The notes beneath the pieces were generated by a model. That model searched no databases. It was not told where the DNA came from and saw nothing but the letters and a program-made list of their open reading frames with translations. DNA of 64,000 nucleotides from an archaeon (GTDB lineage: Archaea > Undinarchaeota > Undinarchaeia > Undinarchaeales > JBDRKL01), in assembly GCA_043814055.1 (NCBI GenBank), contig JBDRKL010000004.1, positions 80,518 to 144,517 of the forward strand, read 5' to 3'. A program made the position numbers and the translations under genes. Of this stretch, positions 1 through 63,124 are shown in pieces; the stretch's first letter is position 1, and the number at the start of each line of letters is the position of its first letter.

Positions 1-447
1 ATAATTAAAACCCTGCGCAAGGATGGCAACGATATTGAAATCCGACCCGAGCTTACAGGGAAAGCAACGCAGTTCGGCAATCTTGACGAGCTCATCCGGC
101 TCAGCCAGGATATTGAAGGCGTTCTGCCGTGCATTGATTTCGCGCACATGTTTGCGCGCACTGGGAAGTTCAACTCGTACGTTGAATTTATGTCAATGCT
201 TGAAAAGATTGAGGTCAGCCTCGGCAAGAAAGCCCTGCAGAACATGCACTGCCACGTGTCAGGCATAGAATTCACTGAGAAAGGTGAGCGCAGGCACTTG
301 GAAATGCCAGATTCTGACTTTCATTACTTAGATTTGGCAAAAGCGTTCAAGGACTCTGGGATGCGCGGCATAGTGATTTCAGAAAGTCCTAATATTGAAT
401 TAGATGCTTTGCTGATGAAAAAATTGTATGGTCAATCAGCTCGGTAG
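1..447 (+). CDS. Endonuclease IV-like TIM-barrel protein (5' truncated by window edge)
   Basis: Frame 1 open from base 1: RPELTGKATQFG...PCIDFAH...HCHVSGI...ISESP, typical of archaeal Nfo/AP-endonuclease-2 family. Confidence 0.8.
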   Translation: MIKTLRKDGNDIEIRPELTGKATQFGNLDELIRLSQDIEGVLPCIDFAHMFARTGKFNSYVEFMSMLEKIEVSLGKKALQNMHCHVSGIEFTEKGERRHLEMPDSDFHYLDLAKAFKDSGMRGIVISESPNIELDALLMKKLYGQSAR

Positions 448-555
448 TCCCGCAATGAATCGCCAGAAAATGTAAAAATAATATTGCTGACGTTTCATTG
501 CGCCCGCAGCATCATCAAAGTAATGCGGACAGCCATCCTCCGCGACCAGGCGGAG
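439..555 (+). repeat. Multi-hairpin repeat element (type A) with internal inserted hairpin
   Basis: GCTCGGTAGTCCCGCA (439-454) identical to 32501-32516; 15-nt loop GCATCATCAAAGTAA; 7-nt linker; terminal hairpin CTCCGCGACCAGGCGGAG 538-555; extra hairpin CGCAATGAA/TTCATTGCG (451-459/494-502). Confidence 0.8.
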
Positions 556-581
556 TGATGAAGAAATTGTATTCTATCTAA
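556..581 (+). pseudogene. Displaced duplicate 3' end of the endonuclease IV-like gene (MKKLYSI*)
   Basis: TGATGAAGAAATTGTAT (556-572) vs TGATGAAAAAATTGTAT (413-429), one synonymous difference, followed by TCT ATC TAA. Confidence 0.75.
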
Positions 582-1224
582 CCACTACGTTTCTAGCTAC
601 GTGGTAGACCTTGAGTAAAATAGTTATTATTATTCCTGCCAGAGCAATCCAGAGCGCTGTTGTGTAGCTTGTGATTGATATTGCAGCCAGAGTCAGGTAA
701 GTTACCATAAGCAAGCCAATTATGGAGCCGATTATCACCGCGGCAAATACTCTGCCCTTGTCAAGTCCGATTGCCCTGCCGAGCAACGATGCCATTACAG
801 CGCCTGTGCCCTGAAATGGTATTATCATCCAAAGCGTACAGCCAGCGAACGACATTCTTTCAACCCATTTATGGATGCCGATTATTCTCTTGGTCTGCGT
901 TGTTATCCATCTCGCGTATTTCCCAACTATTTTTGAGTGCTTAAAAAAGTCCAGGCTTGTGTAAAACCCGAGCCCCACAAAGAAGTCAATCATGAAAAAC
1001 GAACTCACAACCACTATCGGGCTGAGTCCCATGTATATCCCAAGCGGTATGGCGGACTCCTTGCCAATCGGCGGCAGGAAGTAAATCGCCATTAGAAAAC
1101 CAATTTGGCTGAAGCCAATCTCGTCCAGTGAATAATACAGCAGAAAAACCCAGGCAATCATCAGCAGGAAGGGCGTGTACAGCTTGACGAAAGTGTTAAG
1201 GTCTTCTGGACGCGTGAATCTCAT
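574..1224 (-). CDS. Small multi-drug export family membrane protein
   Basis: Hydrophobic 216 aa with KESAIPLG and IPFQGTGA motifs. Confidence 0.75.
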   Translation of the reverse strand: MRFTRPEDLNTFVKLYTPFLLMIAWVFLLYYSLDEIGFSQIGFLMAIYFLPPIGKESAIPLGIYMGLSPIVVVSSFFMIDFFVGLGFYTSLDFFKHSKIVGKYARWITTQTKRIIGIHKWVERMSFAGCTLWMIIPFQGTGAVMASLLGRAIGLDKGRVFAAVIIGSIIGLLMVTYLTLAAISITSYTTALWIALAGIIITILLKVYHVARNVVVR

Positions 1225-1275
1225 ATAATTCCCTAAGTGCAGAACATTTAAAGCTTTTCTTTCCTAATATAAATT

Positions 1276-1686
1276 ATGCCTTTTGAATATATTGAGCACG
1301 AGGCGGACATTGGAATTAAAGGAACGGGCAAGACAGTGGAAGAGGCCTTTGCAGAGGGAGCCAGGGCAATGTTCGGTATTATGGTTGATTTGGAAAAAGT
1401 TGACCCTGTCAAAAGAATTGAGGTTGAATGCGAAGCTGAAAACATCGGGTCTCTTTTTGTTGAATTTCTTAATGCCCTGCTCGCTCAAGTCAACATTGCA
1501 GAAATGTTCTTTTCAAAGTTTGAAGTTAAGATTGACGGTACTCATCTGACTGCAACTGCGTGGGGTGAGCAGATTGACCAGGAGAAGCACCAGACCAAGA
1601 TTGAAGTCAAGGCGGCGACTTTCTCTGGGTTGAAGTATGAAGAGAAAGATGGGGTTCACTCAATTCAGTGTGTGGTTGATGTGTAG
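1276..1686 (+). CDS. Archease (RtcB cofactor)
   Basis: EYIEHEADIGI N-terminus, EVKAATF C-terminal motif; adjacent to rtcB. Confidence 0.95.
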   Translation: MPFEYIEHEADIGIKGTGKTVEEAFAEGARAMFGIMVDLEKVDPVKRIEVECEAENIGSLFVEFLNALLAQVNIAEMFFSKFEVKIDGTHLTATAWGEQIDQEKHQTKIEVKAATFSGLKYEEKDGVHSIQCVVDV

Positions 1687-1690
1687 AGTT

Positions 1691-1773
1691 AACCAAAGGC
1701 AATCAAATGGCTTGGTAAAGTCACAGCTTCATTTATTTCTTGTGGCTTGCTCTTCCTCCGCGAGCAGGCGGAG
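1691..1773 (+). repeat. Multi-hairpin repeat element (type A)
   Basis: Aligns along its length with 32362-32444; GGTA 1714-17, stem AAGTCACA/TGTGGCTT, 15-nt loop, 7-nt linker, CTCCGCGAGCAGGCGGAG 1756-1773. Confidence 0.85.
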
Positions 1774-1856
1774 AAGTCAAGGCGGCGACTTTCTCTGGGC
1801 TGAAATATGAGGAGAAGGACGGGGTGTATTCAGTAATTTGTGTTTTGGATGTATAA
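1773..1856 (+). pseudogene. Diverged duplicate of the last 28 codons of archease
   Basis: EVKAATFSGLKYEEKDGVYSVICVLDV* vs EVKAATFSGLKYEEKDGVHSIQCVVDV* (1603-1686); first 27 bp identical. Confidence 0.92.
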
Positions 1857-1981
1857 TTTTTTTTATAACAATATATAAATACATTCAAATTAACAATCGT
1901 TAAGTTCACAATTGTTAATACAGCGACTTTTTGAAGAGACATCCAGCGACTCTGGAACTGCTGAACTAGGAGGTGATACAA

Positions 1982-2212
1982 TTGCTCAATGCATTTTTGC
2001 TGATAAACACGAAACCGGGAAGGGGGAGAGAGGTTGTTGAGAAATTGTTGGAACACGAGGAGTTTGAAGAGGTAAGGCAGGTCTACGGCGACTATGACAT
2101 ATTTGGCAAGGTGAGCATATCAAGCATGGATGAGCTGAACAAGTTCCTGCTTGAAACAATAAGGAACATGCCGGATGTTGAGCTCTCAAACACACTGGTG
2201 CAAATGGGCTAA
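1982..2212 (+). CDS. Stand-alone Lrp/AsnC ligand-binding domain protein
   Basis: AFLLINTKPG...VYGDYDI pattern; TTG start 1982 after GGAGGTGA ribosome-binding site. Confidence 0.85.
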   Translation: MLNAFLLINTKPGRGREVVEKLLEHEEFEEVRQVYGDYDIFGKVSISSMDELNKFLLETIRNMPDVELSNTLVQMG

Positions 2213-2247
2213 AATACTTAAATAGCCGGGAGCAACAGAGCTGCGAC

Positions 2248-3690
2248 ATGGACCTTACCTTGAAGCAAACCGAAGAGCTAGTATGGGAGCTCCCAAAAAC
2301 TGGCGAAATGCTTGTTCCTGGAAGAATCTACGGCGACGAAGAAATCGTGAAGCACCTTAACAATGACGTGAAAGCCGGAAAGGACTGGAACGCTCTGAAG
2401 CAGGTTTACAACGTGGCGTGCCTGCCAGGAATTCAAAAAGCGTCGCTCGCGATGCCAGACGTGCACCCAGGATATGGCTTTCCAATCGGCGGTGTCGGGG
2501 CATTTGACACTGAAACCGGGGTAATTTCAGTTGCAGGAGTTGGCTTTGATATCAACTGCGGAGTCCGGACTTTAAAGACACCGCTCAAAAAGGATGATGT
2601 TGAAAAGAAAAAGAAAGAGCTCGCTGAAGTTTTATTCAGGGTAATCCCAGCTGGACTCGGCTCAACCGGCGACATCCGCCTGAGCATAGACCAGATTGAC
2701 GAAGTGCTGGTAAATGGTGCTAAGTACTCAGTAGAAAATGGATATGGCTTAAAGGAAGACCTTGAATTCATTGAAGAAAATGGAAAAATCGCAAATGCAA
2801 ATCCTGAGAATGTCTCACGAACCGCGAAGCAGAGGCAGTTCAAGCAGATAGGCACGCTCGGCTCTGGGAATCATTATCTTGAAGTGCAGTATGTTGATGA
2901 AATCTTTGACGAGGTGGCTGCAAAAGCATATGGGCTGGAAAAAGGCCAAATCCTGGTTTCAATTCACTGCGGCTCCCGCGCGCTCGGCCACCAAATCGGA
3001 ACTGACTACCTCAAAACTTTGGAAGCTGCGTCAAAGAAATACAAAATCCCAATCCGCGAGAAAGAGCTTGTATGCGCCCCGTTCACGAGCGAAGAGGGCC
3101 AGCAGTACTTCACCGCAATGAACTGCGGAATAAACTGCGCGTTTGCGAACCGCCAGGCGCTTGCTCACTTGACGCGGAAGGGTTTCACAGAAGTATTTGG
3201 TCTTGGAGAAAAAGAAGTTGAAACCTTTTACGAAATCGGGCATAATACCTGCAAGCTTGAGGAGCACGACGGCAAAAAGCTCATCGTGCACAGGAAAGGC
3301 GCAACAAGAGCGTTCGGCCCTGGGCGAAAAGAAGTGCCGAAAAAATACCGAGAAATCGGCCAGCCAGTCCTGGTCGGCGGGACAATGGGGACGTGCTCTT
3401 ACATACTCCACGGGACTCAGAAAGGGATGGACGAGACCTTCGGAAGCGCGTGCCACGGGGCAGGGAGAAATATGAGCCGCCAGCAGGCCAAGCGCGAGTA
3501 CTTCGGGGAAACAGTTATAAAAGAGCTCGCCGCAAAGGGCATAATAATCAAGGGTCATTCAAAGTCCGGAGTTTCAGAGGAAGCGCCAGGTGCCTACAAG
3601 GACGTTACTGAAGTGGTTGACGTAATGCATACTTCAGGAATTGCGAAGAAAGTTGTGAAAGTTAAACCTTTAATATCAATAAAGGGATAG
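2248..3690 (+). CDS. rtcB: RNA-splicing ligase RtcB
   Basis: PDVHPGYG, DINCG, GNHY, HCGSR, HRKGA, HGAGR motifs. Confidence 0.97.
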   Translation: MDLTLKQTEELVWELPKTGEMLVPGRIYGDEEIVKHLNNDVKAGKDWNALKQVYNVACLPGIQKASLAMPDVHPGYGFPIGGVGAFDTETGVISVAGVGFDINCGVRTLKTPLKKDDVEKKKKELAEVLFRVIPAGLGSTGDIRLSIDQIDEVLVNGAKYSVENGYGLKEDLEFIEENGKIANANPENVSRTAKQRQFKQIGTLGSGNHYLEVQYVDEIFDEVAAKAYGLEKGQILVSIHCGSRALGHQIGTDYLKTLEAASKKYKIPIREKELVCAPFTSEEGQQYFTAMNCGINCAFANRQALAHLTRKGFTEVFGLGEKEVETFYEIGHNTCKLEEHDGKKLIVHRKGATRAFGPGRKEVPKKYREIGQPVLVGGTMGTCSYILHGTQKGMDETFGSACHGAGRNMSRQQAKREYFGETVIKELAAKGIIIKGHSKSGVSEEAPGAYKDVTEVVDVMHTSGIAKKVVKVKPLISIKG

Positions 3691-3706
3691 GGGGTGAAAA
3701 AAAATT

Positions 3707-3805
3707 ATGCAGGACGATGATGAAGATTATCCAAGGGATCTTGAGGATCTAGATGACCTGGAAAACCTGGATGATGTAACCGACCCATGCGACGGTTCTA
3801 TTTAA
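3707..3805 (+). CDS. Putative 32-aa acidic micropeptide
   Basis: MQDDDEDYPRDLEDLDDLENLDDVTDPCDGSI*, 15/32 D/E, preceded by GGGGTGA RBS right after the rtcB stop; not in ORF track. Confidence 0.55.
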   Translation: MQDDDEDYPRDLEDLDDLENLDDVTDPCDGSI

Positions 3806-3925
3806 TAAAATTCTCTGCGCGGGCAGTTGGCGAAGTTTAATATTCAATTACTTCGGAGTAGCCGGCGCTAACAATAGCTCCAAAGCAAGATTTATTAATT
3901 ACTACTGCTCATTCCTACTGAAACC

Positions 3926-4567
3926 ATGATAAAGTCAATAAAAAACTTTATGTTCAGGATGTCCGCGACCCAGATAATCGCAGGCATCATCCTATTGGCA
4001 TCCGTCCTCATATTCGTGCTTTTCTCTGCAATATCATCCGCCTCAGGCATTGGCAGCCATCCGATATTTGGGTTTCTCCTGCTCTGTTTTCTGCTCCTGC
4101 TCACGCGGCTTTCAATCCTTGTCAAGGTCGGAATCGGGTTTGTGAACATAATACTCCTCCCTGTAACAATGTATTATGGCCTACTACCTGCGTTTGCAAT
4201 GATACTCCTTACCAGCTACATTTACATAAAAATCGCGACCAGGCCAACCCCGATTGACTTCTTAATCACAAAGGGCGTGCAGGGCGCAATCGCCCAGTCA
4301 ATTTACTTCTCAATCTGGGTGCTAACTATCCACTTGATGTTCAAGTTTGTGAGCTTTGAGTACTTCTTCATCCACTTGACTTTCATGTATATGCTCTGCA
4401 TTGCAATCTACATAATTTACATGGTGCCAGCTCTTCACATTATCGCGCTTGACCCTCTCCCAATCACGCTGGTCAATGGAATGATGATGATGGCGGTTCA
4501 GTTCATACTCATAACCCTAACCGGGAGCAGCTTTTTTATGTTTGTTAAGTCGCTTGCCGGAGTCTAG
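3926..4567 (+). CDS. Hypothetical multi-pass membrane protein
   Basis: 213 aa, about 6 hydrophobic segments. Confidence 0.7.
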   Translation: MIKSIKNFMFRMSATQIIAGIILLASVLIFVLFSAISSASGIGSHPIFGFLLLCFLLLLTRLSILVKVGIGFVNIILLPVTMYYGLLPAFAMILLTSYIYIKIATRPTPIDFLITKGVQGAIAQSIYFSIWVLTIHLMFKFVSFEYFFIHLTFMYMLCIAIYIIYMVPALHIIALDPLPITLVNGMMMMAVQFILITLTGSSFFMFVKSLAGV

Positions 4568-7066: not shown

Positions 7067-7078
7067 GGGGAGTAAAAA

Positions 7079-15277: not shown

Positions 15278-15357
15278 AAATTATACGTGTATTCCCCTGC
15301 CTATAAACTTTCCCCAAAGTTTAATTATTTGAAGAACTTATTCTTCTTTAATGAAAG

Positions 15358-15475
15358 CTCCGCCTGGCCGCGGAGGTGGGCCACGTCGGGGGATGCTCGC
15401 TTCAGCACGCAGCTCGTGCTGAGGCATGCGCTGCGTGTCTCTGCATGCTGGCGCATGCAGATCACTCGATCCCCC
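15358..15475 (-). repeat. Multi-hairpin repeat element
   Basis: Terminal hairpin CTCCGCCTGGCCGCGGAG 15358-75 (reverse complement of 32213-30); nested stems GGGGGAT/ATCCCCC, TCAGCACG/CGTGCTGA, CTGCATGC/GCATGCAG. Confidence 0.75.
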
Positions 15476-15505
15476 ATATTGAGAAAAACATGAAAGCACC
15501 AAACA

Positions 15506-15565
15506 CTCCGCCTGGCCGCGGAGGATGGCGTCAGGGGCATTCGCTCCTTTCAGTCGCGAAGCCCC
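15506..15565 (-). repeat. Multi-hairpin repeat element (type B) flanked by duplicated nre start
   Basis: CTCCGCCTGGCCGCGGAG 15506-23; GGGGC-TTCGC...GCGAA-T-GCCCC hairpin on minus strand; ATGAAAGCACCAAA at 15490-15503 and 15579-15592. Confidence 0.8.
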
Positions 15566-15578
15566 AATAGAGGTTTAG

Positions 15579-16781
15579 ATGAAAGCACCAAATATGTGTA
15601 TAGCCTGCAAAGGCGCAAGAGCCCTATGCGGCAACGAACGCTGTCCCCTACTCGCAAGAGTAAATGTCACGCCAAAGCTCACAGGCAGAATTGGAACCGA
15701 CTTCTTCGGCCCGTCCCCCAGCGTTTTCGTGGGCAGAATAGGCTACCCAAATCTCTATATGGGTCCGCTCGCGACTTTTCAGGAAGAAGAAAACCCTGAG
15801 CTTATGGACACGCCGAGCTCCTGGATGAATATGAGCTATGACAAGATTGTTGAAATGCGCTCAATGCTCATCCGCTCCAAGTCAGTGCAGAACATTTTCT
15901 CAAAATCAAGATTCATTGAAGAGAACCAGGAGCTTGCGCTCGCTGAGCGGCCGACTGATGTTGAGCTGAACTTCTCCCGCGAGCCAACCTACAAGGTCTC
16001 TTTCTCTGACGTGCATCAGCCAATGGGCCCGTCAGCTCCGCTAGAAAAAATGAAAATCACCGAGAACGTGAAGATAAACCGCAAAGTAGACCGCATAGTT
16101 TCAGACGACTTGAAAGCGAACGAGTCAGTGCTCAACCTCTACGACATTGATGTTGACGTTTACAAAATCACCACAATCCTCAGCTCAGGCGCGCTCGGCC
16201 TGGAGCAAAACCAGAAGCTCGTTCCTACAAGATGGAGCATAACCGCTACGGACGATATGGTCGCAAAGAATCTCATTGAGCAGGTCAAGGACTTCAAGAG
16301 CGTGAGTGAGTTCAACGTGTTTGAGTTTGAATACCTCAGCAACCACTTCTGCATACTCGCAATGCCTGGCAACTGGGAGTTTGAGAACTTTGAGGCCTGG
16401 GCGCCGGGCTCGTTCTGGAGCCAGGGTTTGAAGAATACTGCGATTACTGAAGAATACGAATCCTTTGAAGGCCGCAAGAAATACGCAACAGAGCAGGGTG
16501 GCGGCTACTACGCTGCGCGCCTAGGGGTTGTGGAAGGGCTCAGCGAGCTCAAGCGGCAGGCAAGAATTGTTTCGTTCAGGGAAATTTATGAAGGCTACAC
16601 AGTTCCTCTTGGCGTTTGGGTAGTTAGAGAAGCTGCTCGGAACGCTATGCGCCAGCTGCCTGTGAAATTCACAACCCTAAAAGAAGCGCTTGCGCACATC
16701 AACTCAAGAATGCGAATTGACACGAGTGATTATTTCTCAAAGAGCAGGATTCTGAGGCAGAAGCGGCTTACTGAGTATTAA
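15579..16781 (+). CDS. nreA: Nre family DNA repair protein
   Basis: N-terminal CxxCKG..LCG..RCP, LVPTRWSITATD, C-terminal PIP box QKRLTEY. Confidence 0.92.
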   Translation: MKAPNMCIACKGARALCGNERCPLLARVNVTPKLTGRIGTDFFGPSPSVFVGRIGYPNLYMGPLATFQEEENPELMDTPSSWMNMSYDKIVEMRSMLIRSKSVQNIFSKSRFIEENQELALAERPTDVELNFSREPTYKVSFSDVHQPMGPSAPLEKMKITENVKINRKVDRIVSDDLKANESVLNLYDIDVDVYKITTILSSGALGLEQNQKLVPTRWSITATDDMVAKNLIEQVKDFKSVSEFNVFEFEYLSNHFCILAMPGNWEFENFEAWAPGSFWSQGLKNTAITEEYESFEGRKKYATEQGGGYYAARLGVVEGLSELKRQARIVSFREIYEGYTVPLGVWVVREAARNAMRQLPVKFTTLKEALAHINSRMRIDTSDYFSKSRILRQKRLTEY

Positions 16782-24690: not shown

Positions 24691-24735
24691 ATGAACAAAT
24701 TCCTCAAGCTCGGCGCAGAGGCAAAGAATGATTAG
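24691..24735 (+). pseudogene. Displaced 5' end of bud32 (MNKFLKLGAEAKND*)
   Basis: KFLKLGAEAK identical in amino acids to bud32 residues at 25290-25319, differences only at third codon positions. Confidence 0.85.
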
Positions 24736-25291
24736 GTCATCTATTATAGCGGAAAAGATTTGGGAATATCTTAGGGATAACTTGGGTAAACTCAAAGACA
24801 AGTACACAAAGCCCAATGACAGAGTAGAACTGGTAAGAGGGATAGTGAAAGAAATCGGCACAAATGCTCGCACAGTAAACCCCTTCTTCAGTTACCTCCT
24901 TCAGGCTCCGCAAAAAGGTTGGAAAGTAAAATGGGGTTCCTTCTTCAAGAGAATGCATGAAGAGGATGTATTTTTCTTCTTGCAGTTGTCCCTTTTCATT
25001 TACAAGATTACTAGAGGGGGGGCGAGAAAATCAGGTGTGGTTTCTGCAATAGGCCTTGGGTATACGTTCAAAGCAACAGGCAGGGAACTTGACGACGTGT
25101 ACAAAACCGGTGCCACAGGGTTTATCTACAGTTACATACGAAAAAATGGCAGCATAACTGTTCCGGATGACTGCACAAAAGTGCAGGCCTACCTGAAGGA
25201 TCAGTACCAAAAGCACGATATAACAACAGTGCTTTCAACAATTACAACACTACTGCTCTGTGGGAGTATAGAGGTGCAGGGTGCAAAGTAA
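24728..25291 (+). CDS. Hypothetical cargo protein inserted in the bud32 5' end
   Basis: 187-aa AT-rich ORF between two copies of the bud32 N-terminus. Confidence 0.7.
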   Translation: MIRSSIIAEKIWEYLRDNLGKLKDKYTKPNDRVELVRGIVKEIGTNARTVNPFFSYLLQAPQKGWKVKWGSFFKRMHEEDVFFFLQLSLFIYKITRGGARKSGVVSAIGLGYTFKATGRELDDVYKTGATGFIYSYIRKNGSITVPDDCTKVQAYLKDQYQKHDITTVLSTITTLLLCGSIEVQGAK

Positions 25292-25877
25292 ATTCCTAAA
25301 GCTCGGCGCAGAAGCGAAACTCACCCGAAAAGGCGACAAGCTCACAAAGGAGCGCATCAAGAAAGGGTACCGCCTGAAAGAAATAGACGAGCCGCTCAGA
25401 AAACAAAGAACCGCGCGGGAAGCGAGCCTGATGGACAGGGCAAGGCGAGCCGGAGTTCTAGTCCCAAAGATTTACAAAGTTGACAAGGAAAAAATGAGCA
25501 TTGAAATGGATTTCCTTGAAGCGAAGCGAATTGACCAGGTTCTGACTGAAGAGCTCTGCGCGCAAACAGGAGCTGAAATCGCAAAGCTGCACGATGCTGA
25601 CATAATCCACGGCGACTTGACAACTTCAAACATCCTTGTGAAAGAAGACGGCATTTACTTCATAGACTTCGGGCTCGGCGAAGTTTCAAAAAGCATTGAG
25701 AAGAAAGGCGTTGACCTGCGCGTGTTTAAGGAAGCAATCCGCGCGACAAAAGGCGAGGAAGCTGACAAGTACATAGACGCGGCGATGAAAGCGTATGTGG
25801 AAAATTCAGAATCCGGCGCAGAAGTTTTAAAGCGCTTGGAAAAAATCGAGACAAGAGGCAGGTATAAAGAGCGTTAA
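25281..25877 (+). CDS. bud32: KEOPS kinase Bud32
   Basis: GAEA, KERIKKGYR, HGDLTTSN, IDFGL, RGRY. Confidence 0.95.
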   Translation: MQSKFLKLGAEAKLTRKGDKLTKERIKKGYRLKEIDEPLRKQRTAREASLMDRARRAGVLVPKIYKVDKEKMSIEMDFLEAKRIDQVLTEELCAQTGAEIAKLHDADIIHGDLTTSNILVKEDGIYFIDFGLGEVSKSIEKKGVDLRVFKEAIRATKGEEADKYIDAAMKAYVENSESGAEVLKRLEKIETRGRYKER

Positions 25878-31910: not shown

Positions 31911-31975
31911 TGCAGTGAAGAAGTGAACACCCTCTGATACCGCCCAAAGATGATGAGTATGGTAGCTTCTGAGCA
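31911..31975 (+). ncRNA. Archaeal box C/D methylation guide sRNA
   Basis: TGC-A-[C GTGAAGA 31915-21]-12 nt-[D' CTGA 31934-37]-12 nt-[C' ATGATGA 31950-56]-12 nt-[D CTGA 31969-72]-GCA; terminal TGC/GCA stem. Confidence 0.8.
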
Positions 31976-32036
31976 CTCAATGATTTTTTGGTCCAGCTTT
32001 TGCGCGAGTTTTGCGAGCGGAAAAGGTGGGTGCCAG

Positions 32037-32084
32037 CACCCTCTGATACCGCCCAAAGATGATGAGTATGGTAGCTTCTGAGCA
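32037..32084 (+). repeat. Exact 48-bp duplicate of the sRNA 3' part
   Basis: Identical to 31928-31975. Confidence 0.97.
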
Positions 32085-32169
32085 ATCTTTTTCCTTCCAA
32101 TTTATCAAAAACGTCGGACGCACAGCGTCCGAGGCCAACGCGCTTCGCGCGTCTGGAGCTTGACCAAAA

Positions 32170-32564
32170 ACAGTGCTGCTGCTTGATGTTTTTGAAGCAG
32201 CACGTGGCCGCTCTCCGCGGCCAGGCGGAGATAGCAGTAGCTTCTGAGCAATCGTTTTCACAAACTTCTATTGAGGCTTCGCCGATGGCGAATGCCTCTG
32301 CTCTGCCTCCGCGAGCAGGCGGAGCTTCTGAGCAATCTAAACTTTTATTTTTCACAAATTTGACCGAAGGCACCCGAATGGCTTGGTAATGCCACAGCAT
32401 CACCAATTTTATGTGGCATGCTCTGCCTCCGCGAGCAGGCGGAGCTTCTGAGCAATCTAAACTTTTATTTTTCACAAATTTGACCGAAGGCATCCTACTT
32501 GCTCGGTAGTCCCGCAGCATCAAAAATTTCTTGCGGGACAAAGTGCCGCCTGATTTTTCAGGCG
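32170..32564 (+). repeat. Tandem cluster of four hairpin elements separated by copies of the sRNA 3' end AGCTTCTGAGCAATC
   Basis: Terminal hairpins at 32213-30, 32307-24, 32427-44, 32547-64; 74-bp exact repeat 32299-32372 = 32419-32492 (period 120). Confidence 0.9.
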
Positions 32565-36883: not shown

Positions 36884-36950
36884 ATTATCACTTATAGCAA
36901 CCTTTATATTTAATTCTTATTATAGAGTAGGTTACTTGGTGCACAAATTG

Positions 36951-37030
36951 CACCAGTGCTCAATTGGCTGGGTAGTCCTGCAGCATGACAAATATCCTGC
37001 AGGACAGCTTGTCAACTGAGCTTGCAGTTG
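36951..37030 (+). repeat. Multi-hairpin repeat element (type A) in tRNA-Thr leader
   Basis: GGTA 36971-74, stem GTCCTGCA/TGCAGGAC, 15-nt loop GCATGACAAATATCC, 7-nt linker, 18-nt hairpin CAACTGAGCTTGCAGTTG 37013-30. Confidence 0.75.
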
Positions 37031-37147
37031 CCTCGATAGCTCAGTTGGTAGAGCGTTACCTTGGTACACGGCACGAGAATCGTGCGCGATTCCGACTGCC
37101 GTCGAAACAGGTAAAGGCCGGGAGTTCAACTCTCCCTCGGGGCTCCA
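37030..37147 (+). tRNA. tRNA-Thr(GGT) with 42-nt intron at 37/38 (37067-37108), CCA encoded
   Basis: Acceptor GCCTCGA/TCGGGGC, D stem GCTC/GAGC, anticodon stem TTACC/GGTAA, anticodon 37063-65, TTCAACT loop. Confidence 0.93.
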
Positions 37148-45635: not shown

Positions 45636-45669
45636 GAGTAAAATGGTTTGGGTATAAACCAATTTGCAC

Positions 45670-45729
45670 GGTAGCGGTGCAGCATCACCAATTTGATGCA
45701 CCGCACTTTCCCTCCGCAAGTAGGCGGAG
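45670..45729 (+). repeat. Multi-hairpin repeat element (type A) abutting tRNA-Gly CCA
   Basis: GGTA, stem GCGGTGCA/TGCACCGC, loop GCATCACCAATTTGA, 7-nt linker, CTCCGCAAGTAGGCGGAG 45712-29. Confidence 0.85.
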
Positions 45730-45910
45730 TGGTGCGCCGGCCGGGACTTGAACCCGGGTCGCAGCCTGTTTGCAACCCACTTCGCAGATTTACTGCCGCG
45801 AAGCGGCTCCGAATCGCGTAGCGATTCGTTTTTTGGTCGAGCTTTTTGCGCGCGTAAGCGCGGAAAAAGGTCGTGGCAAGGCTGAATCATAGCCGCTAGA
45901 CCACCAGCGC
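45730..45910 (-). tRNA. tRNA-Gly(GCC) with 106-nt intron at 37/38 (45768-45873), CCA encoded
   Basis: Acceptor GCGCTGG/CCGGCGC, anticodon stem CAGCC/GGCTG, BHB helix TTGC/GCAA, T arm CCGGG-TTCAAGT-CCCGG. Confidence 0.92.
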
Positions 45911-50988: not shown

Positions 50989-51157
50989 ACAAACTTTTAA
51001 CCGGTTAGCTATCCTTCTGGATAACTATGCTGAAAAGTTTGATCAAAAATAGGCCATATCAAGTTTGTGATGCTATAGCCTTATTGGTCTGGTCAATCTG
51101 TTGCGCTGTTTTCCATAGGCACTAAAGTATATAAGATTTCCCACATTACACATCTTC

Positions 51158-58518: not shown

Positions 58519-58554
58519 GAAATTTCATATGCCAGCGGACTATAAAAATTTGTC

Positions 58555-59034: not shown

Positions 59035-59082
59035 TGGTAAGGAAGCAAATTATTTATACTCTATTGTGTTGTATCTGAATCA

Positions 59083-59559
59083 ATGAAACACTCCCTGAAA
59101 ATTGGATTCTGCTTCGGACTCACGTCCGGCATAATAACAACTTTGGGTTTAATGGTCGGCTTGCACGCTGGCACGCACTCAACACTCGTCGTGATAGGTG
59201 GCATTCTCACAATCGCAATCGCGGACGCATTCTCAGACGCGCTCGGCATCCACATCTCAGAGGAGTCCGAGAACAAGCACACCCCCCGCGAAATCTGGGA
59301 GGCAACTCTCTCAACTTTCTTCTCAAAGCTTTGCTTCGCCCTAACTTTTCTAATACCCGTGCTACTCCTTGATTTGTCAACAGCGATATGGGTGAGCATT
59401 GCCTGGGGTCTATTAGTTCTTGCGCTCGCGAGCTACGCGATAGGTCGGGCTGAGACAACAAAAACCTGGCACGTTGTTGCAGAGCACCTGCTCATCGCAG
59501 TTGTGGTCATAATCATCGCGCACTTCGTCGGCGACTGGATTGGCACGGTGTTTGTTTAA
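59083..59559 (+). CDS. VIT1/CCC1-like membrane protein
   Basis: FGLTSGIITTLG, IADAFSDALG. Confidence 0.82.
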   Translation: MKHSLKIGFCFGLTSGIITTLGLMVGLHAGTHSTLVVIGGILTIAIADAFSDALGIHISEESENKHTPREIWEATLSTFFSKLCFALTFLIPVLLLDLSTAIWVSIAWGLLVLALASYAIGRAETTKTWHVVAEHLLIAVVVIIIAHFVGDWIGTVFV

Positions 59560-59604
59560 AGCAAATTATTTATATGCAGCTCGCGATTTAATCCGCACAA
59601 CATT

Positions 59605-59678
59605 GGGACTGTAGCTCAGCCCGGGAGAGCACCAGACTGAAGATCTGGGTGTCGGGTGTTCAAATCACCCCTGTCCCA
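59605..59678 (+). tRNA. tRNA-Phe(GAA), CCA not encoded
   Basis: GGGACTG/CTGTCCC (U6-U67 mismatch), CCAGA-CTGAAGA-TCTGG, GGGTG-TTCAAAT-CACCC. Confidence 0.93.
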
Positions 59679-59693
59679 CTCAAACCCTTTCTG

Positions 59694-59820
59694 GACCAAA
59701 GGCATTCAAATAGCTCAGTAGCGCTGCAGCATCATTGATTTTATGCACCGCAAAGTGCAAACACGCAAAGCGTGTTGCGCCACACACTTTGTGTGTGCGC
59801 GCCAGCCGATTTTGCGGCTG
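59694..59820 (+). repeat. Composite multi-hairpin repeat element
   Basis: GACCAAAGGCA start, AGTA, stem GCGCTGCA/TGCACCGC with 15-nt loop, linker AAAGTGC, two extra hairpins, GCGCCAGCCGATTTTGCGGCTG (59799-820) identical to reverse complement of 63064-85. Confidence 0.85.
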
Positions 59821-59860
59821 CACCACTACCTTTTTATATCCAATCAGCTTACCCCCCTCT

Positions 59861-60634
59861 ATGACCCGGCTCATAGCTGTCGCCTCTGGGAAAGGCGGCG
59901 TTGGGAAGACAACTTCTACTGTAAACATCGGAGCAGCCCTGGCCAAATTTGGCAGAAATGTGATAGTTCTTGACGCGAACCTCACCACTCCTAACGTTGG
60001 CCTGCACCTTGGAATGCACGGTCCTCTCACAACCCTGAACGATGTAATTGAAGGCAAGGCAACAATCACGGACGCAATCTACCTGCACCACAGCGGCCTC
60101 CGCGTTATCCCTGCCGGCATCAGCCTGAGGCATTTGAAATCCGCTGATCCTGCGCGCCTCTGGGACATTATGCTGGACCTCTTCGGCTCTGCAGAAGTAG
60201 TGCTTTTAGACACTCCCGCTGGATTAGAATCAGGAGCAAAAGCAGTGCTGGACGCGGCAGAGGAAGTCCTAATCATAACAAACCCTGAAGTGCCTGCAGT
60301 CACGGACGCGTTAAAAACAATCAGAGTCGCGAAGCACTCCGGCGCCCAGCCAATCGGGGTTGTAATCAACAAAGTAACCAACGACCACGGTGAGATGAGC
60401 AAGGAAGAGGTTGAGGCAATGCTAGACCTTCCTGTAATTGCGCAAATCCCTTTTGACAAGGAAATTACCCGCTCAATAAAAATGAAGAGCCCCATAGTTC
60501 TCCGCTATCCAACGAGCCCTGCGGCCAAGGCGTACACAAAGCTCTCCGCAGACCTGGTGGGCATTGAGCACGAGATAAAAGCAGAAGGCTGGGGCGCGGT
60601 GCACTTCCTCAAAAAACTCTTTGGAGTAAACTAA
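59861..60634 (+). CDS. minD: MinD/ParA family ATPase
   Basis: SGKGGVGKTT, LDANL, LDTPAG, NPE..AVTDA; start 59861. Confidence 0.92.
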   Translation: MTRLIAVASGKGGVGKTTSTVNIGAALAKFGRNVIVLDANLTTPNVGLHLGMHGPLTTLNDVIEGKATITDAIYLHHSGLRVIPAGISLRHLKSADPARLWDIMLDLFGSAEVVLLDTPAGLESGAKAVLDAAEEVLIITNPEVPAVTDALKTIRVAKHSGAQPIGVVINKVTNDHGEMSKEEVEAMLDLPVIAQIPFDKEITRSIKMKSPIVLRYPTSPAAKAYTKLSADLVGIEHEIKAEGWGAVHFLKKLFGVN

Positions 60635-60635
60635 G

Positions 60636-61397
60636 ATGATACTCGGCTTCAAGGAAATCTACGGCTTCACAGCCATGGATTCAAATGGGAAGAAGCTTGG
60701 GAAGCTTTTCAACGTGATAGTGGACGCGGAATCCGAGGACGCTTATTTCTACCTGAGCAGCAGGGCGGGCACAATGCCGCTCAGCGGGCTTGCGAAAAAG
60801 AACTACTTCGCCTCAATCAATAAACTTGGATCCATAAATCACAGCGACAAAACGCTCAAGTTCAGCGCCTCTGCTGAAAAACTTAATCATAATCCTCCTG
60901 CAGCGTCGCTCTACGATCACCTGACTTTTGTTCCTCCTGCTCCGCTGGAGTTGATGGGCATCCACGAAGGCACGCGCGTCTACGATGCGCGGAAGAAGCT
61001 CTCCGGGGTTGTGTATGACTACCTGCTTGACAATGAGCTCGGCAAGCGCATTGGAATAGTGATAGTCCCGCTCAAGGAGCTCCACACCTCAGTGAACGTG
61101 AAGCCGCGCATCAAGCCGGGCACTACATACGCAGCTGACCTGGCGCACCTAAGATTGTTCCGCAACCGCGCTCACAACTACATAGTCATAGACCAGTCCT
61201 TCAGCCAGATAAAGTGGATTTCCGGAGTGCCGGACTATTCTAGTGTAGAGTCATCAGCGCCGGACAACTCGCTTGCAACCTACATAGATGGGCACCTAAA
61301 GCAGGGGTACTCCCCCGAGGACATTGAGGCGAGCTTAATTGAGGCTGGCTGGGACGAGAAAACTGTTTCTGAAGCGATAAAAAGGATGGGATTTTAA
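60636..61397 (+). CDS. Protein with two PRC-barrel-like repeats and a C-terminal helical domain
   Basis: IYGFTAMDSNGKKLGKL..IVD and GTRVYDARKKLSGVV.DYLLD; YI..L.QGYS.EDI..L.AGW tail. Confidence 0.6.
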   Translation: MILGFKEIYGFTAMDSNGKKLGKLFNVIVDAESEDAYFYLSSRAGTMPLSGLAKKNYFASINKLGSINHSDKTLKFSASAEKLNHNPPAASLYDHLTFVPPAPLELMGIHEGTRVYDARKKLSGVVYDYLLDNELGKRIGIVIVPLKELHTSVNVKPRIKPGTTYAADLAHLRLFRNRAHNYIVIDQSFSQIKWISGVPDYSSVESSAPDNSLATYIDGHLKQGYSPEDIEASLIEAGWDEKTVSEAIKRMGF

Positions 61398-63035
61398 TTA
61401 TCTCAACCCTTCAACATCAAACTCAAACAACGTAACAGGATATTCTATACCAAAGTGCGACAAAACATCAGGGCTAACTTCTCCAAAAACTCCAATCACC
61501 TTGTTCCCAACGAGAACTTCCACTACCCTGCCTGGGATGAAAGTTCCATACTCGCACTCCCTGATTGAGTACTTCTTCCCAATATTGTTCAGGAACGCCT
61601 CAACATTCGCCTTTGCCTCTGAGTAGTTCGCTTCCGAATGCAAAATTCCTCCTCCAATTCTCCACACGTTCTTTGCGCCGGTCTCAAACTTGCTGTCCAG
61701 CTGAACCGTGATTCCAATTTCAAAGAGCTTCTGCGGCATTTCCGAGCTCGCGTTCTCCGAGAAGTTCTGCAAGAGCCCAGGGAGCAGTGAAGACCTGCAT
61801 ATCGTGTACTCAACAGTTCTTGGATTCTTAATCTCCGCGACAGGGGTTTCTGGCAAATGCGCTTTTGTGAATTCTTTCTCCTTGTTTGAAAGCACGAAAT
61901 TCACTCCCTCCTGGAACCCAAGCCCAACCATCAAAGTTCTCAGCGTGTTCGCTAACTCGTTCCTCGCGTTCGGCTTTCCAATAGTCCCAATCTCAGGAAG
62001 CCGCGGCTCAAACTTGTCATACCCGTGCCCAACTGCAATGTCCTCAACAATATCAATCGGATGCATCACGTCCATCCTGTACGCTGGCACAATCGCATCC
62101 TTGCCGTCAAACCCAACGCGCATCTTCTCAAGTGCTGCCTTTACTTCGCCCGGCTTCATGTTCAGGTCAAGCAATTTGTTAACATAATTCAAATCCAGTT
62201 TCATCCTCTGCGGGGTCAAGTCAGGGGTTGTAACAACTTTCTTATCAGGATAAATCGCCTTCACTTCATAAATCTCAGCGCCCCTGTCTGCAAGCGCAGT
62301 TGTAACCACGTTCATCATTTCCATAACTGGTTTCCACGCGGTTCCGGTAACCTCTATGAACATGTTCTCAGTGTCTTCTCGTATCCTGCCGAACTGCGCG
62401 TTCGTGTAAGGAAGAACAGCCATTGTGTTTCCTTTCGCGTCAATGTAAGCAGGGTATTCCTTCCAGTTCTCTGCGAGGTGCTTGTATTCCTGCCCCTTCG
62501 GATGTTGCTCCTCAACCTCTTTCACAGTCATTTCATCATTAAACAAAAGCGGAGTGAACTTGTAATCCGGCTTCACAGTTGTGTATTTCACAGGGAAATT
62601 AATATCCCCTAGGTGATATGTTCCCATAGCGGCTTTCTTTCGGTTTCTTCCAATTGTGAAAGTCAATTTATCCTGGAGTTGCATGAACCCTGCAACAGTT
62701 TCCTCAGTGAACTTGTAGCCCTTAACAACTGCAAATGCGGCGCAGCCTCTTGTTCCCAGCACGCTCTTGTCAACGTGAACGTCATATTTTGACTTCTTTA
62801 CTTCATACTCTGGCAGACCTTTCTTAACGCCCAAAAAGCCCTGCACGCCCCGCGCGAACCCTTCAATTGAGTACATGTCCGGCCTGTCAGGCGTAATGTC
62901 AAACGATACAGTTTCCTCGTCAAGCCCTTCAAGTGTAAAGCCCATCATCGGCAGAACGTCAGAGTACTCACGCTTAGTGAGCGTCTTTCCTATAAGCCCT
63001 TCCAAATCTACGCGGTTGAAATTTAATACTGCCAT
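61398..63035 (-). CDS. pheT: Phenylalanyl-tRNA synthetase beta subunit
   Basis: DITPDRPDMYS, YRMDVMHPIDIVED, GEVSP. Confidence 0.96.
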   Translation of the reverse strand: MAVLNFNRVDLEGLIGKTLTKREYSDVLPMMGFTLEGLDEETVSFDITPDRPDMYSIEGFARGVQGFLGVKKGLPEYEVKKSKYDVHVDKSVLGTRGCAAFAVVKGYKFTEETVAGFMQLQDKLTFTIGRNRKKAAMGTYHLGDINFPVKYTTVKPDYKFTPLLFNDEMTVKEVEEQHPKGQEYKHLAENWKEYPAYIDAKGNTMAVLPYTNAQFGRIREDTENMFIEVTGTAWKPVMEMMNVVTTALADRGAEIYEVKAIYPDKKVVTTPDLTPQRMKLDLNYVNKLLDLNMKPGEVKAALEKMRVGFDGKDAIVPAYRMDVMHPIDIVEDIAVGHGYDKFEPRLPEIGTIGKPNARNELANTLRTLMVGLGFQEGVNFVLSNKEKEFTKAHLPETPVAEIKNPRTVEYTICRSSLLPGLLQNFSENASSEMPQKLFEIGITVQLDSKFETGAKNVWRIGGGILHSEANYSEAKANVEAFLNNIGKKYSIRECEYGTFIPGRVVEVLVGNKVIGVFGEVSPDVLSHFGIEYPVTLFEFDVEGLR

Positions 63036-63040
63036 TTTAG

Positions 63041-63063
63041 ATGTACGCTGTCTCCCTCAGCCA
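63041..63063 (-). pseudogene. Displaced duplicate of pheS 3' end
   Basis: ATGTACGCTGTCTCCCTCAGCCA identical to 63154-63176; ends ATC TAA one base before pheT ATG. Confidence 0.9.
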
Positions 63064-63124
63064 CAGCCGCAAAATCGGCTGGCGCTTTGTGCTACGTTCG
63101 CTCACTTCGTTCGCGAAGCAGCAC
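63064..63124 (-). repeat. Multi-hairpin repeat element (type B) between duplicated pheS ends
   Basis: Minus strand GTGCTGC...GTAGCAC stem, linker AAAGCGC, CAGCCGATTTTGCGGCTG abutting the duplicate. Confidence 0.8.

Follow-up and report, generated by a model that had tools for sequence, protein, structure and literature searches.

Bacterial REP elements with their RAYT enzymes, and integrase systems with their att sites, offer comparisons for the small hairpin elements analyzed here, which come from the tiny genome of an uncultured archaeon (a 980-kb metagenome bin in 14 contigs, 82% complete, with an estimated contamination of 0.21%). An earlier note on a 64,000-nt stretch of this genome, hereafter the window, had likened the elements to REP/RAYT. 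The likeness fails: the archaeal copies do not occur as inverted doublets, long duplications of the target are seen, and no Y1 HUH gene was found in the bin (82% complete). With integrase systems the elements have in common a siting at many tRNA genes and tRNA decoys that start in the T-loop, as att sites do; the >20 unrelated targets, in contrast, are unlike site-specific integration.

The copies form a lineage-specific family of small (∼55–130 nt), gene-less, hairpin-structured insertion cassettes. In its full form, the element consists, from 5′ to 3′, of a module L (..ACCAAAGGCA..GCTYGGYAG), a hairpin H1, a 7-nt linker, and an 18-nt terminal palindrome, H2. H1 is preceded by TAG and comes in two types, type A with an 8-bp stem and a 15-nt loop beginning GCATCA, and type B with the arms GGGCTTCG..CGAATGCCC. 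On its 3′ side the element always ends with the last paired base of H2; its 5′ end is heterogeneous, and there are no terminal inverted repeats. The fixed geometry claimed for type A is borne out by 14 genome-wide matches to a strict pattern (GTA + 8-bp stem + 15-nt loop GCNTNA + 7-nt linker + 18-nt hairpin) and by a nearly gap-free alignment of 19 copies over 86 columns, in which the sole gap is 1 nt long and found in 2 rows. The claimed covariation is likewise evident in both stems, with 92.9% of cells paired compared with 67.6% in shuffles and 72 cells changed on both stem sides compared with 25 expected; when the 3′ partner is slid by 1–3 columns as a control, paired cells drop to 31–47%. 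The motif CTCCGC-N5-7-GCGGAG occurs eight times in the window as against 0 in 100 dinucleotide shuffles, and CTCCGC-N6-GCGGAG is found 26 times across the 980-kb genome. Unpaired bases are kept alongside the stems, namely GCATCA in the loop and TAG before H1, and their conservation suggests that they may be recognized by a specific protein or RNA.

Only in this genome has the family expanded. With a covariance model, 37 type A copies are found here and no more than two weak matches per genome in 16 others from the phylum, and in this search the family is close to missing from the other genomes of the same order. Degenerate exact-pattern scans with one type B + H2 motif and one type A motif returned no true copies in species-representative genomes or in IMG/VR, and the element has no match in Rfam.

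All 12 of the dispersed copies counted earlier in the window were recovered at, or within a few nucleotides of, the places given for them, although that list lacked an additional, degenerate type A copy found with the covariance model (about 51028..51111, minus strand) and a nested insert in the copy at 439-555. The claim that H2 abuts a duplicated host segment holds at five loci. At the endonuclease IV-like gene (AP_endonuc_2, plus strand), the in-use copy of a 17-nt segment of the 3′ end (413..429) is followed by a type A element with a truncated 5′ module (430..555, plus strand; terminal H2 CTCCGCGACCAGGCGGAG at 538-555), which supplies the TAG (445-447) at which the gene now stops and holds the nested 48-nt hairpin insert (455-502), flanked by a 6-nt duplication, CCCGCA (449-454 and 503-508). 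The displaced copy of the 17-nt segment (556..572, plus strand) begins at the base after H2, carries one synonymous difference, and continues to the ancestral end SI* (TAA at 579-581). At archease, the in-use last 28 codons with the stop TAG (1603..1686, plus strand) precede a full-length type A element (1688..1773, plus strand; 5′ module L, H1, 7-nt linker, and H2 at 1756-1773), and the displaced gene end (1773..1856, plus strand) has 1 nt in common with the end of H2; its leading 27 nt are identical to the in-use copy, and beyond them there are eight synonymous codon changes, four conservative changes, and a change of TAG to TAA. On the minus strand, the in-use end of pheS (63154..63176) has its final Ile codon and stop (ATA TGA) completed by the 5′ bases of a type-B-like element at the pheS-pheT junction (63064..63153, minus strand; H2 CAGCCGATTTTGCGGCTG at 63064-81, plus strand), whose H2 joins without a gap a displaced copy of the last 23 coding nucleotides of pheS (63041..63063, minus strand); this copy continues as YI-TAA and retains the sequence upstream of pheT.

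The duplicates are not confined to gene ends, as the earlier description had it; at nre, it is the gene start that is duplicated, as is also the case for several tRNA 5′ ends. Upstream of nre, an older composite element (15358..15489, minus strand) has its H2, as the reverse complement, at 15358-15375, abutting an 8-nt remnant of the nre start (15350-15357). It is followed by a decoy copy of the start (ATGAAAGCACCAAACA, 15490..15505, plus strand) and by a type B element (15506..15578, minus strand; H2 as the reverse complement at 15506-15523, H1B GGGGCTTCGCG..GCGAATGCCCC), the 5′ end of which abuts the real nre ATG at 15579, so that the duplicate pair is 15490-15503 / 15579-15592. The fifth locus, next to a C/D-box-like sRNA and at its 3′ end, is an accretion array (31928..32564, plus strand) with five copies of AGCTTCTGAGCA and, between them, a family-ii hairpin element (31979-32036), a composite element (H2 at 32213-32230), a type B element (H2 at 32307-32324), and two type A elements (32359-32444 and 32479-32564); duplicates of the sRNA end follow 32230, 32324, and 32444.

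Three further copies in the window lie at tRNA genes, and no flank duplicates were detected at any of them. A type A element of the CAACTG-hairpin subfamily (36945..37030, plus strand) has as its last base the base +1 of tRNA-Thr (37030-37147), a second type A element (45644..45729, plus strand) runs with its H2 (45712-45729) directly up to the 3′ end of a tRNA-Gly gene that contains an intron and points toward it (45730-45910, minus strand), and a composite element (59691..59820, plus strand), made up of L, H1A, two extra hairpin modules, and H2 (CAGCCGATTTTGCGGCTG at 59803-59820), stands 14 nt behind tRNA-Phe.

Genome-wide, there is a clear excess of the duplications that the earlier note had looked to as a check, with 184 short-range direct repeat pairs compared with 2 in the shuffled genome; about 30 of the 184 bracket hairpin inserts. 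At >20 loci (the five in the window and ∼15 more elsewhere), a direct duplicate of 9–87 nt begins at most 2 nt from the last base of H2. The junctions are of three kinds: 1–2 nt of common bases, a blunt join, or 1–6 nt of filler. At least 1 nt is common at 12 of 21 gap-free junctions, as against 25% expected (p = 0.0017), and filler is seen at 6 further junctions.

The reading that we favor, and to which we give about an even chance, is that the elements are selfish hairpin cassettes that spread by host joining at the H2 end together with homologous recombination between lineages. The foot of H2 would be the physical DNA end of a mobile intermediate, arising from a break at the extruded palindrome, from a run-off point of copying, or from fold-back of a new strand, and host repair or replication would illegitimately join this end to the target a few tens of bases behind the attachment point of the element's 5′ end, so that the intervening stretch would be copied twice. 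In a genome that is ∼93% coding by a crude ORF count, insertions would survive only where the duplication rebuilds the interrupted gene or tRNA terminus, and copies would therefore pile up at gene termini. Homologous recombination with a single crossover in the duplicate would then carry filled sites from one diverged lineage to another or, equivalently, a unit of gene end plus element would integrate in one piece; the resident gene end would remain downstream of H2 as the displaced copy, and further rounds would stack such copies. A dedicated enzyme would not be needed.

The recombination step was brought in by the duplicates themselves. In ten protein-gene ends compared copy with copy, there are 35 synonymous and 13 non-synonymous differences, 7 changes from one stop to another, and 1 stop shift, compared with 9.4, 42, 0.46, and 6.4, respectively, under a free-decay null, and none of 20,000 simulations matched the observed counts (P < 5e-5). 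The two copies of a duplicated protein-gene end thus differ as functional alleles would, and the view of the diverged duplicates as decayed target-site duplications was rejected. Some duplicates are mosaics in which an identical leading block (27 nt at archease, 34 nt at C4:51180, 18 nt at C7:36389) gives way to a tail diverged by ∼30%. Since the copies are different functional alleles, the account has to include recombination with DNA from diverged relatives. Allele-like differences in a 14-contig metagenome bin could also arise if variants of co-existing strains had been stitched in tandem at shared words during assembly; we regard this as very improbable, as one precise geometry recurs on 10 contigs, at >30 loci in all, many identical duplicates (9–20 nt) fall below the word sizes used in assembly, the tail divergence is far beyond strain-level variation, both flanks continue normally, and the estimated contamination is low. 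In addition, the independent assembly of a relative has the same architecture, a related element with a tRNA decoy right behind its H2.

The arrangement is polar. At 16 loci the only gene terminus contained in the duplicate is that of the element's 5′ neighbor, at 2 it is that of the 3′ neighbor, and at 4 the termini of both neighbors are contained (16 versus 2, binomial p ∼ 1e-3 by our own arithmetic); the intact gene is thus the one on the 5′ side. Among 20 informative loci, what lies on the 5′ side is a gene 3′ end in 14 and a gene 5′ end in 6. How the elements are oriented is not linked to GC skew (24:28), which may be uninformative here, and a strand-specific replication mechanism is therefore unsupported. 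An RNA step or a selected function could instead lie behind the strong tendency of the elements to run in the same direction as the genes upstream of them. For the former, a SINE-like retroelement whose RNA ends in the H2 hairpin and is reverse-transcribed from a target nick would also account for the constant 3′ and variable 5′ ends, the variable duplication length, and the hairpin modules that sit inside tRNA introns, which are excised as RNAs. However, reverse transcriptase was not detected in the 82%-complete bin, an A-rich or partner-derived 3′ tail is absent, the element is antisense to the abutted gene at six loci, and an RNA stage is unlikely for gene cargo flanked by such duplications; we consider this route improbable.

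Selected function would mean that the hairpin modules are cis-elements (for example signals for transcript 3′ ends or stability, leaders or promoters of tRNA genes, or sites of processing) spread by ordinary recombination, with the duplications as by-products of recombination between alleles. The covarying stems and conserved loop bases fit this idea, as do the co-orientation just described, the five type A copies that begin 1–9 nt downstream of a stop codon, the CAACTG/CAACTT subfamily that ends exactly at tRNA +1 at several tRNAs (three tRNA-Thr genes among them), and the occurrence of allelic stacking without hairpins. We nevertheless find it unlikely: the family is nearly absent from the same order and absent from all other species genomes scanned, coding ends are interrupted and new stops supplied (endonuclease IV-like gene, pheS), elements are nested in one another and inside tRNA introns, Rfam offers no counterpart, and passive recombination leaves unexplained why the duplicate starts at the foot of H2. 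It should be noted that about seven copies in the genome stop exactly at a tRNA boundary without a duplicate, an outcome that our favored reading does not predict.

The earlier note had placed the enzyme outside the window, and indeed none is found there; nor did 12 Pfam models of recombinase, transposase, reverse-transcriptase, and Cas1 domains (among them RVT_1, Phage_integrase, Y1_Tnp, Cas1, Cas12f1-like_TNB, OrfB_IS605, IS110 DEDD, Resolvase, DDE_Tnp_1, and rve) give a significant match in the 82%-complete bin, one sub-threshold zinc-ribbon match aside. A non-autonomous transposon or mini-integrative element could still be moved in trans by a dedicated, unrecognized structure-specific enzyme that binds H1 and H2 and cuts at the foot of H2, with widely staggered target cuts or with recombination at a core inside the duplicate; its gene could lie in the missing 18% of the bin, on an unbinned virus or plasmid, or in a family without a Pfam model. 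The precise 3′ terminus, the unpaired motifs adjoining covarying stems (the loop's GCATCA and the TAG at the 5′ foot of H1), the expansion in one lineage, and the tRNA siting would suit such an enzyme, and an identical leading block with a diverged tail resembles an att core plus an element-borne gene end. We hold this to be possible but rather unlikely, because the target range speaks against site-specific integration, duplicates of 9–87 nt with common-base or filler junctions are unlike transposase or integrase chemistry, and the variable 5′ end and the lack of terminal inverted repeats do not fit. Moreover, long duplications of the same kind flank hairpin-less protein-coding cargo in this genome, including a bud32-start duplicate around an ORFan, an MNT-HEPN pair, GNAT genes, and a stack behind a gene that is SecD-like by sequence only; long target duplications are not special to the hairpin element.

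The earlier interpretation, a non-autonomous mobile element or a recombination-promoting signal, is partly supported overall, and the evidence suggests that both halves are partly true. In this archaeon, the spare copies of gene ends are in many cases variants belonging to related lineages; this points to a route of DNA gain that has not been described before and that uses no known transposase.

Every copy listed in the earlier note is present in the window (plain coordinates refer to it; C4, C7 and so on are contigs of the same genome bin). The element is a non-coding hairpin cassette of 55–130 nt, built of a 5′ module (L), a hairpin (H1), a 7-nt linker and a terminal 18-nt palindrome (H2), and its copies are single or stacked head to tail, not inverted pairs. 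The CTCCGC-N6-GCGGAG terminal hairpin occurs 8 times in the window, compared with none in 100 shuffles, and 26 times in the genome; the strict geometry of type A, whose H1 is an 8-bp stem with a 15-nt loop, occurs 14 times genome-wide. Nineteen copies could be aligned over 86 columns, the only gap being 1 nt long (in two rows), and the covarying stems previously claimed appear in this alignment as two well-supported helices: paired cells amount to 92.9%, against 67.6% in shuffles and 31–47% when the 3′ partner is slid, both sides are changed in 72 cells where 25 are expected, and 12 of 14 pairs covary. What is kept in sequence is the loop start GCATCA and the stretch GCTYGGYAG ahead of H1. Type B copies have a different H1 (GGGCTTCG..CGAATGCCC) and have the linker, H2 and sometimes L in common with type A; H1 is preceded by GGTAG in type A and by (A/T)TAG in type B. 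A known RNA family was rejected because Rfam gave no match at gathering score or E ≤ 1, and a promoter (TATA) reading of the AT-rich H1 loop was set aside: the distance from the element end is −34 to −48, and in several copies the loop is not TATA-like.

The genome bin (979,685 bp in 14 contigs; GC 45–48%; completeness 82%, contamination 0.21%; ~93% coding by a crude ORF call) is the sole representative of its family among species-representative genomes, and archease identity to its nearest relatives, in the same order, is only 53–65%. The covariance-model scan proposed in the earlier note yielded 37 type-A matches here and, across 16 other genomes of the phylum, no more than two weak ones apiece. 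Two genomes of another family contain the weak matches, which are real relatives of the element, with an extra hairpin, H1, a linker AAUUAUC and an H2 of CTCCGCAATTTGGCGGAG; they adjoin tRNA genes, and in a relative a neighboring type-B-like copy has a decoy tRNA 3′ end, from GTTC, directly after H2. The architecture is thus old at the order level, and its expansion is lineage-specific. Pattern scans of 185,579 species genomes gave no match apart from one chance match in an Acidobacteria MAG, and a literature search found no description of such an archaeal element. A viral origin was rejected, since IMG/VR gave one chance 18-mer match that the covariance model did not confirm. Neither a close relative nor empty sites or close strains were found in species-representative genomes, in JGI metagenome contigs or by exact-protein look-up.

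A second hairpin family, family ii (AACCTTTTT..AAAAAGCTTGACCAAAAA), has the same kind of duplication at its flanks and is also found within long tRNA introns. These introns (106–193 nt) are assembled from hairpin modules of the intergenic elements, namely family ii and CAAACACGC..GCGTGTTTG hairpins, as in tRNA-Gly (window 45730–45910), tRNA-Trp (C6:51029–51297) and tRNA-Met (C12:152935–153119). Two type A elements flank tRNA-Asn (C12:34836–35149), with H1 modules identical at 44 of 45 positions and different 5′ modules and terminal hairpins, a pattern that points to single modules having been exchanged or converted between copies. A separate long hairpin of ~50 nt (CACAATGAATC..GATTCATTGTG type; 455–502) is nested, with a 6-nt CCCGCA duplication, in the type A copy at 439–555, and hairpins of this type are also nested within copies of a 5′-leader motif (C11:6812–6945; C10:26385–26515). 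The leader motif itself, AGCTTCGYGTT-ATTTCAAAGCTG-N-GGAGG-AAACTTTGAAATG, has ~25 copies genome-wide and ends on a start codon (for example, C11:9169–9250, C10:34942–35066 and C12:140906–140958); its inverted TTTCAAAG arms around the ribosome-binding site suggest that it is either an element of translational control common to these genes or a further mobile module.

An unbiased scan of the whole genome for ungapped direct repeats 30–600 nt apart returned 184 pairs, compared with 2 in a shuffled genome, bearing out an excess of flanking duplications genome-wide. Of these pairs, 41 enclose inserts that are no longer than 260 nt and are predicted to fold strongly; ~30 of these inserts are hairpin elements, and the remainder are protein repeats or a tandem array. 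Each duplicate is a direct repeat of the target, with an in-use copy that serves the gene and a displaced copy, or decoy, beyond H2. The abutment of terminal hairpin and duplicate that had been noticed from the sequence holds for more than 20 of the 228 perfect 6-6-6 hairpins, at which the duplicate starts within −2 to +2 nt of the last base. Duplicates range from 9 nt (C10:576) to 83–87 nt (archease; C7:36389), and the element's 3′ end is always H2, its 5′ end being heterogeneous. Twelve of 27 H2/duplicate junctions share 1–2 nt, 9 are blunt and 6 carry 1–6 nt of filler, so that shared bases are in excess (12 of 21 vs. 25% expected, p = 0.0017). Such junction heterogeneity is typical of end-joining or template switching, not of transposase or integrase chemistry.

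Polarity was counted on a crude gene map, with tRNAs from aragorn and ORFs of 120 aa or more assigned to each event. The duplicate holds the terminus of the 5′-side gene only at 16 loci, of the 3′-side gene only at 2 and of both at 4, meaning that the displaced copy is nearly always on the H2 side. The 5′-side gene supplies its 3′ end, co-oriented with the element, in 14 cases, and its 5′ end, anti-oriented, in 6, including nre, tRNA-Ala and the tRNA-Tyr 5′ end. There are more than 20 unrelated targets, comprising ends and starts of protein genes, at least 10 different tRNAs and one sRNA; no conserved target motif was seen by inspection of the listed duplicates, and GC skew revealed no strand bias relative to replication. 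Duplicates of tRNA 3′ ends start in the T-loop, and four tRNA decoys (C12:133157, C9:11369, C10:78544 and C12:18912) have a recurrent 2-nt insertion (CC or CT) 4–5 nt past the H2 join. No duplicate was detected for some seven copies, mostly of the CAACTG/CAACTT H2 subfamily, whose end falls precisely on a tRNA boundary, either at base +1 or, where the tRNA is convergent, at its 3′ end. Members of this subfamily that stop exactly at base +1, with no flank duplicate and with three tRNA-Thr isoacceptors among their neighbors, are located at window 36945–37030, C10:138321–138406, C8:32429–32558, C12:34836–34921 and C8:36237–36322; at tRNA-Thr(GGT), the hairpin has 10 nt that could pair with the tRNA D-arm by complementarity (AGCTCAGTTG).

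In-use and displaced versions of ten protein-gene ends were compared codon by codon, leaving out of the statistics a 125-nt duplicate of ambiguous reading frame (C4:43183–43305). The changes comprise 35 synonymous and 13 non-synonymous (mostly conservative) substitutions, 7 replacements of the stop by a different stop and 1 shift of the stop by one codon; an equal number of differences placed at random gives 9.4, 42, 0.46 and 6.4, respectively, and none of 20,000 simulations reached the observed values. Differences so allele-like indicate that the two copies first diverged as functional gene ends and were joined afterwards. In-situ decay of a simple target-site duplication is therefore rejected for the protein-gene ends, where changes are mostly synonymous and stops turn into other stops. 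Decoys of tRNAs decay freely, as at C9:50911, where the decoy lacks C56 and CCA.

The differences are unevenly distributed, with an identical leading block beside H2 (27 nt in archease, 34 nt at C4:51180, 18 nt at C7:36389 and 23 nt in pheS) followed by a tail that is ~30% different. At stacked loci, whole units of gene end, spacer and element are homologous to one another at ~75% identity; three ends, REEEALELWE*, EEALALWK* and REAEALELFKA*, are present for a diphthine-synthase-like gene (so named from the C-terminus only), and similar stacks are found at tRNA-Pro and at the sRNA locus 31928–32564. A diversity-generating retroelement (template and variable repeat) was rejected, because the differences are not adenine-specific and no reverse transcriptase was found; bulge-helix-bulge splicing and ribosome bypass were set aside, because direct repeats cannot form the helix needed and the in-use copy ends with a stop codon.

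Long duplications are also present at the junctions of three gene-cargo loci, where the terminal hairpin is absent. At bud32, the first 29 nt after the start are duplicated (24697–25318) with 3 synonymous differences, enclosing a 187-aa ORFan (24728–25291), and the upstream decoy retains a promoter-like TTTATTAAA box; the ORFan is unmatched in Pfam, and two protein libraries (5.8 and 1.8 billion sequences) yielded no homologue. The start of a DUF357 gene is duplicated over 52 nt (98% identical) around a 1.06-kb toxin-antitoxin-like pair of MNT (NTP_transf_2) and HEPN genes (C7:35159–36214; C7:35107–36266 including the duplicates), and its 3′ end is duplicated too, as an 87-nt allelic copy around a family ii hairpin element (C7:36389–36632). 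At the third locus (C13:29600–31900), the end of a SecD-like gene (named by sequence only) is present three times (..AKMAEMLFGEE* once, ..AKMAEVFLGEE* twice) and the start region of the next gene twice, stacked around a GNAT gene (159 aa), a 271-aa ORFan and a second GNAT gene (163 aa); this looks like a tandem pile of allelic segments. Elsewhere, four paralogous genes lie in tandem at C6:72487–75260, repeating every ~870 nt, and their 5′ regions are nearly identical (82%–95% over 110–164 nt).

We propose, putting the chances at about even, that the hairpin cassettes are installed via a DNA end at the foot of H2, with selection at gene termini, and that they spread by homologous recombination. 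The end at the H2 foot would arise from a cut at the extruded palindrome, or where fold-back of the new strand halts copying; its illegitimate joining to the target, behind the site at which the element's 5′ side is attached, would cause a stretch of target to be copied twice. In a compact genome, selection would retain only those events whose duplicate restores the interrupted terminus. Homologous recombination would then carry filled sites into diverged lineages; a crossover that falls within the displaced copy would leave an identical leading block followed by the tail of the resident allele, and further rounds would stack units. We infer how the cassette first inserts, through what intermediate, and in which direction alleles pass.

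Six-frame searches of the 82%-complete bin with Pfam models, in which the named control genomes matched every time, gave no significant match to RVT_1, Phage_integrase, Y1_Tnp (PF01797; Y1 HUH, RAYT-type), Cas1, DEDD_Tnp_IS110, Resolvase, DDE_Tnp_1, rve or OrfB_IS605, so none of the enzyme classes singled out in the earlier note (HUH/RAYT, IS200/IS605, IS110, Cas1, reverse transcriptase) was detected in the bin. The Phage_integrase search did not recover even a XerA homologue, and Cas12f1-like_TNB gave a sub-threshold zinc ribbon alone. Self-comparison of the genome found no multi-copy repeat of IS size. The 187-aa ORFan was rejected as a candidate enzyme, having neither Pfam match nor homologue and a single-sequence structure model with a pLDDT of 42 (unusable). 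A 47-nt repeat (GTAGCGGGGGATGGACTCGGGAACGCAGAACCTAACGGTTCCGCACC) with a 90-nt period is found at two contig ends (C13:47429–47655; C12:153103–153209); given that its 43-nt intervals are identical between units and that the bin lacks Cas1, it is probably a tandem repeat rather than a functional CRISPR array.

The main rival to installation via an H2-foot end is a dedicated, unrecognised enzyme that moves the element, for which the conserved unpaired motifs and the copies ending at a tRNA boundary speak; set beside the searches and the junctions, we consider it unlikely. A tentative but real possibility is that the cassettes move without any enzyme of their own, host machinery processing the H2 palindrome and end-joining and homologous recombination installing the cassette beside a re-copied target. 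Here, the end would be made exactly at the hairpin foot, whether a cruciform or hairpin is cut or the new strand folds back during copying.

Several known systems resemble the element in part. The earlier note had compared the element to REP/REPIN sequences. What stands of this comparison is the (G)TAG at the 5′ foot of a hairpin and a short, GC-rich, imperfectly palindromic, non-coding and numerous sequence scattered between genes; the Y1 HUH gene, the inverted doublets and the absence of target duplication do not carry over, since here no Y1 HUH gene was found in the bin, a second, terminal hairpin sets the junction and duplications are 9–87 nt long. As in MITEs, the copies are small, non-coding, numerous and restricted to a lineage, but they have no terminal inverted repeats, their 5′ ends are heterogeneous, the duplication is of variable rather than short, fixed length and DDE, rve, IS110, IS605 and IS200 genes were not found. 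PATE-like elements derived from IS200/IS605 have subterminal hairpins at both ends, insert without duplication 3′ of a fixed tetranucleotide and have a TnpA/TnpB partner; here duplications are present, Y1_Tnp and OrfB_IS605 were unmatched and Cas12f1-like_TNB stayed below threshold. A fixed 3′ end, a variable 5′ end and a variable target duplication are in common with non-LTR or SINE-type elements, but no reverse transcriptase partner was found, RVT_1 being unmatched in the bin.

Williams reportedly set out, in 2002, sublocation classes of tRNA-targeting integrative elements. The att duplications of such elements resemble those described here in that a tRNA 3′ end is duplicated from the T-loop, the insert-proximal copy rebuilds the functional end of the gene, a displaced end is left and an identical block is followed by a diverged tail. 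In contrast to integrative elements, the insert is ~60–130 nt, the duplicate is variable, junctions have filler or shared bases, dozens of unrelated targets are used, protein-gene ends and starts among them (vs. one specific site per element family), and no tyrosine or serine recombinase was found in the bin. Paquin et al. are said to have described mitochondrial double-hairpin elements in 2000, and repetitive hairpin-forming elements are named from sponge mitochondria. Such elements and GC clusters are likewise tiny and GC-rich, with two hairpins, invade intergenic regions and introns of a compact genome, have no associated enzyme and are modular and mosaic in build, but they occupy organelle genomes of eukaryotes, and we know of no report of long target duplications or allelic displaced gene ends for them. 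C-terminal displacement in rhs and CDI toxin loci was reportedly described by Jackson et al. in 2009. There, too, incoming DNA successively replaces a gene 3′ end and older ends form a downstream orphan stack, but the newly arrived tips code for toxins with new functions and are favored by selection. The ends displaced here belong to housekeeping genes and are functionally equivalent (archease, pheS, thermosome and diphthine-synthase-like, the last two by C-terminal sequence only), and the hairpin element thus appears to be the driver.

Another close description is that of insertions with long, variable target duplication, reportedly described in bacteria by Nobusato et al. in 2000, whose mechanism, to our knowledge, is still unexplained. 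The variable direct target duplication of tens of base pairs with no recognisable mobility gene is found here as well; repeats over a gene start or stop keep the target intact, and they could allow units to be stacked or amplified. The Nobusato/Furuta description applies directly to the MNT-HEPN, GNAT and ORFan inserts. The Nobusato/Furuta cases differ in being bacterial, in consisting of whole genes, mostly restriction-modification systems, and in resting on empty sites, whereas the commonest passenger here is an archaeal, 55–130-nt non-coding cassette with a fixed terminal palindrome, and its duplicates are demonstrably different alleles. As defined by Furuta et al., such insertions have a direct duplication of tens of base pairs and variable length and lack a mobility gene within or next to the insert; the target gene survives because the repeats frequently cover its start or stop, and the mechanism was unexplained as of 2010 (PMC2853133).

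If the enzyme-free reading is true, a transposase-free "break-and-copy" mobility would explain long-target-duplication insertions in general and would drive the repeated replacement of housekeeping gene ends by alleles of other lineages. The genome supplies dozens of small, well-delimited examples of such insertions, with H2 as a fixed structural landmark at one junction, clear polarity and informative junctions, so that archaeal repair enzymes and short synthetic substrates would permit a direct test of the open mechanism. For such genomes, annotation pipelines need to allow for decoys of tRNA ends and gene starts and for stop codons that the element supplies. In this genome-reduced DPANN archaeon, housekeeping genes appear repeatedly to gain 3′ or 5′ ends from diverged relatives, and the displaced ends are a readable record that could be used to measure gene flow in unculturable lineages.
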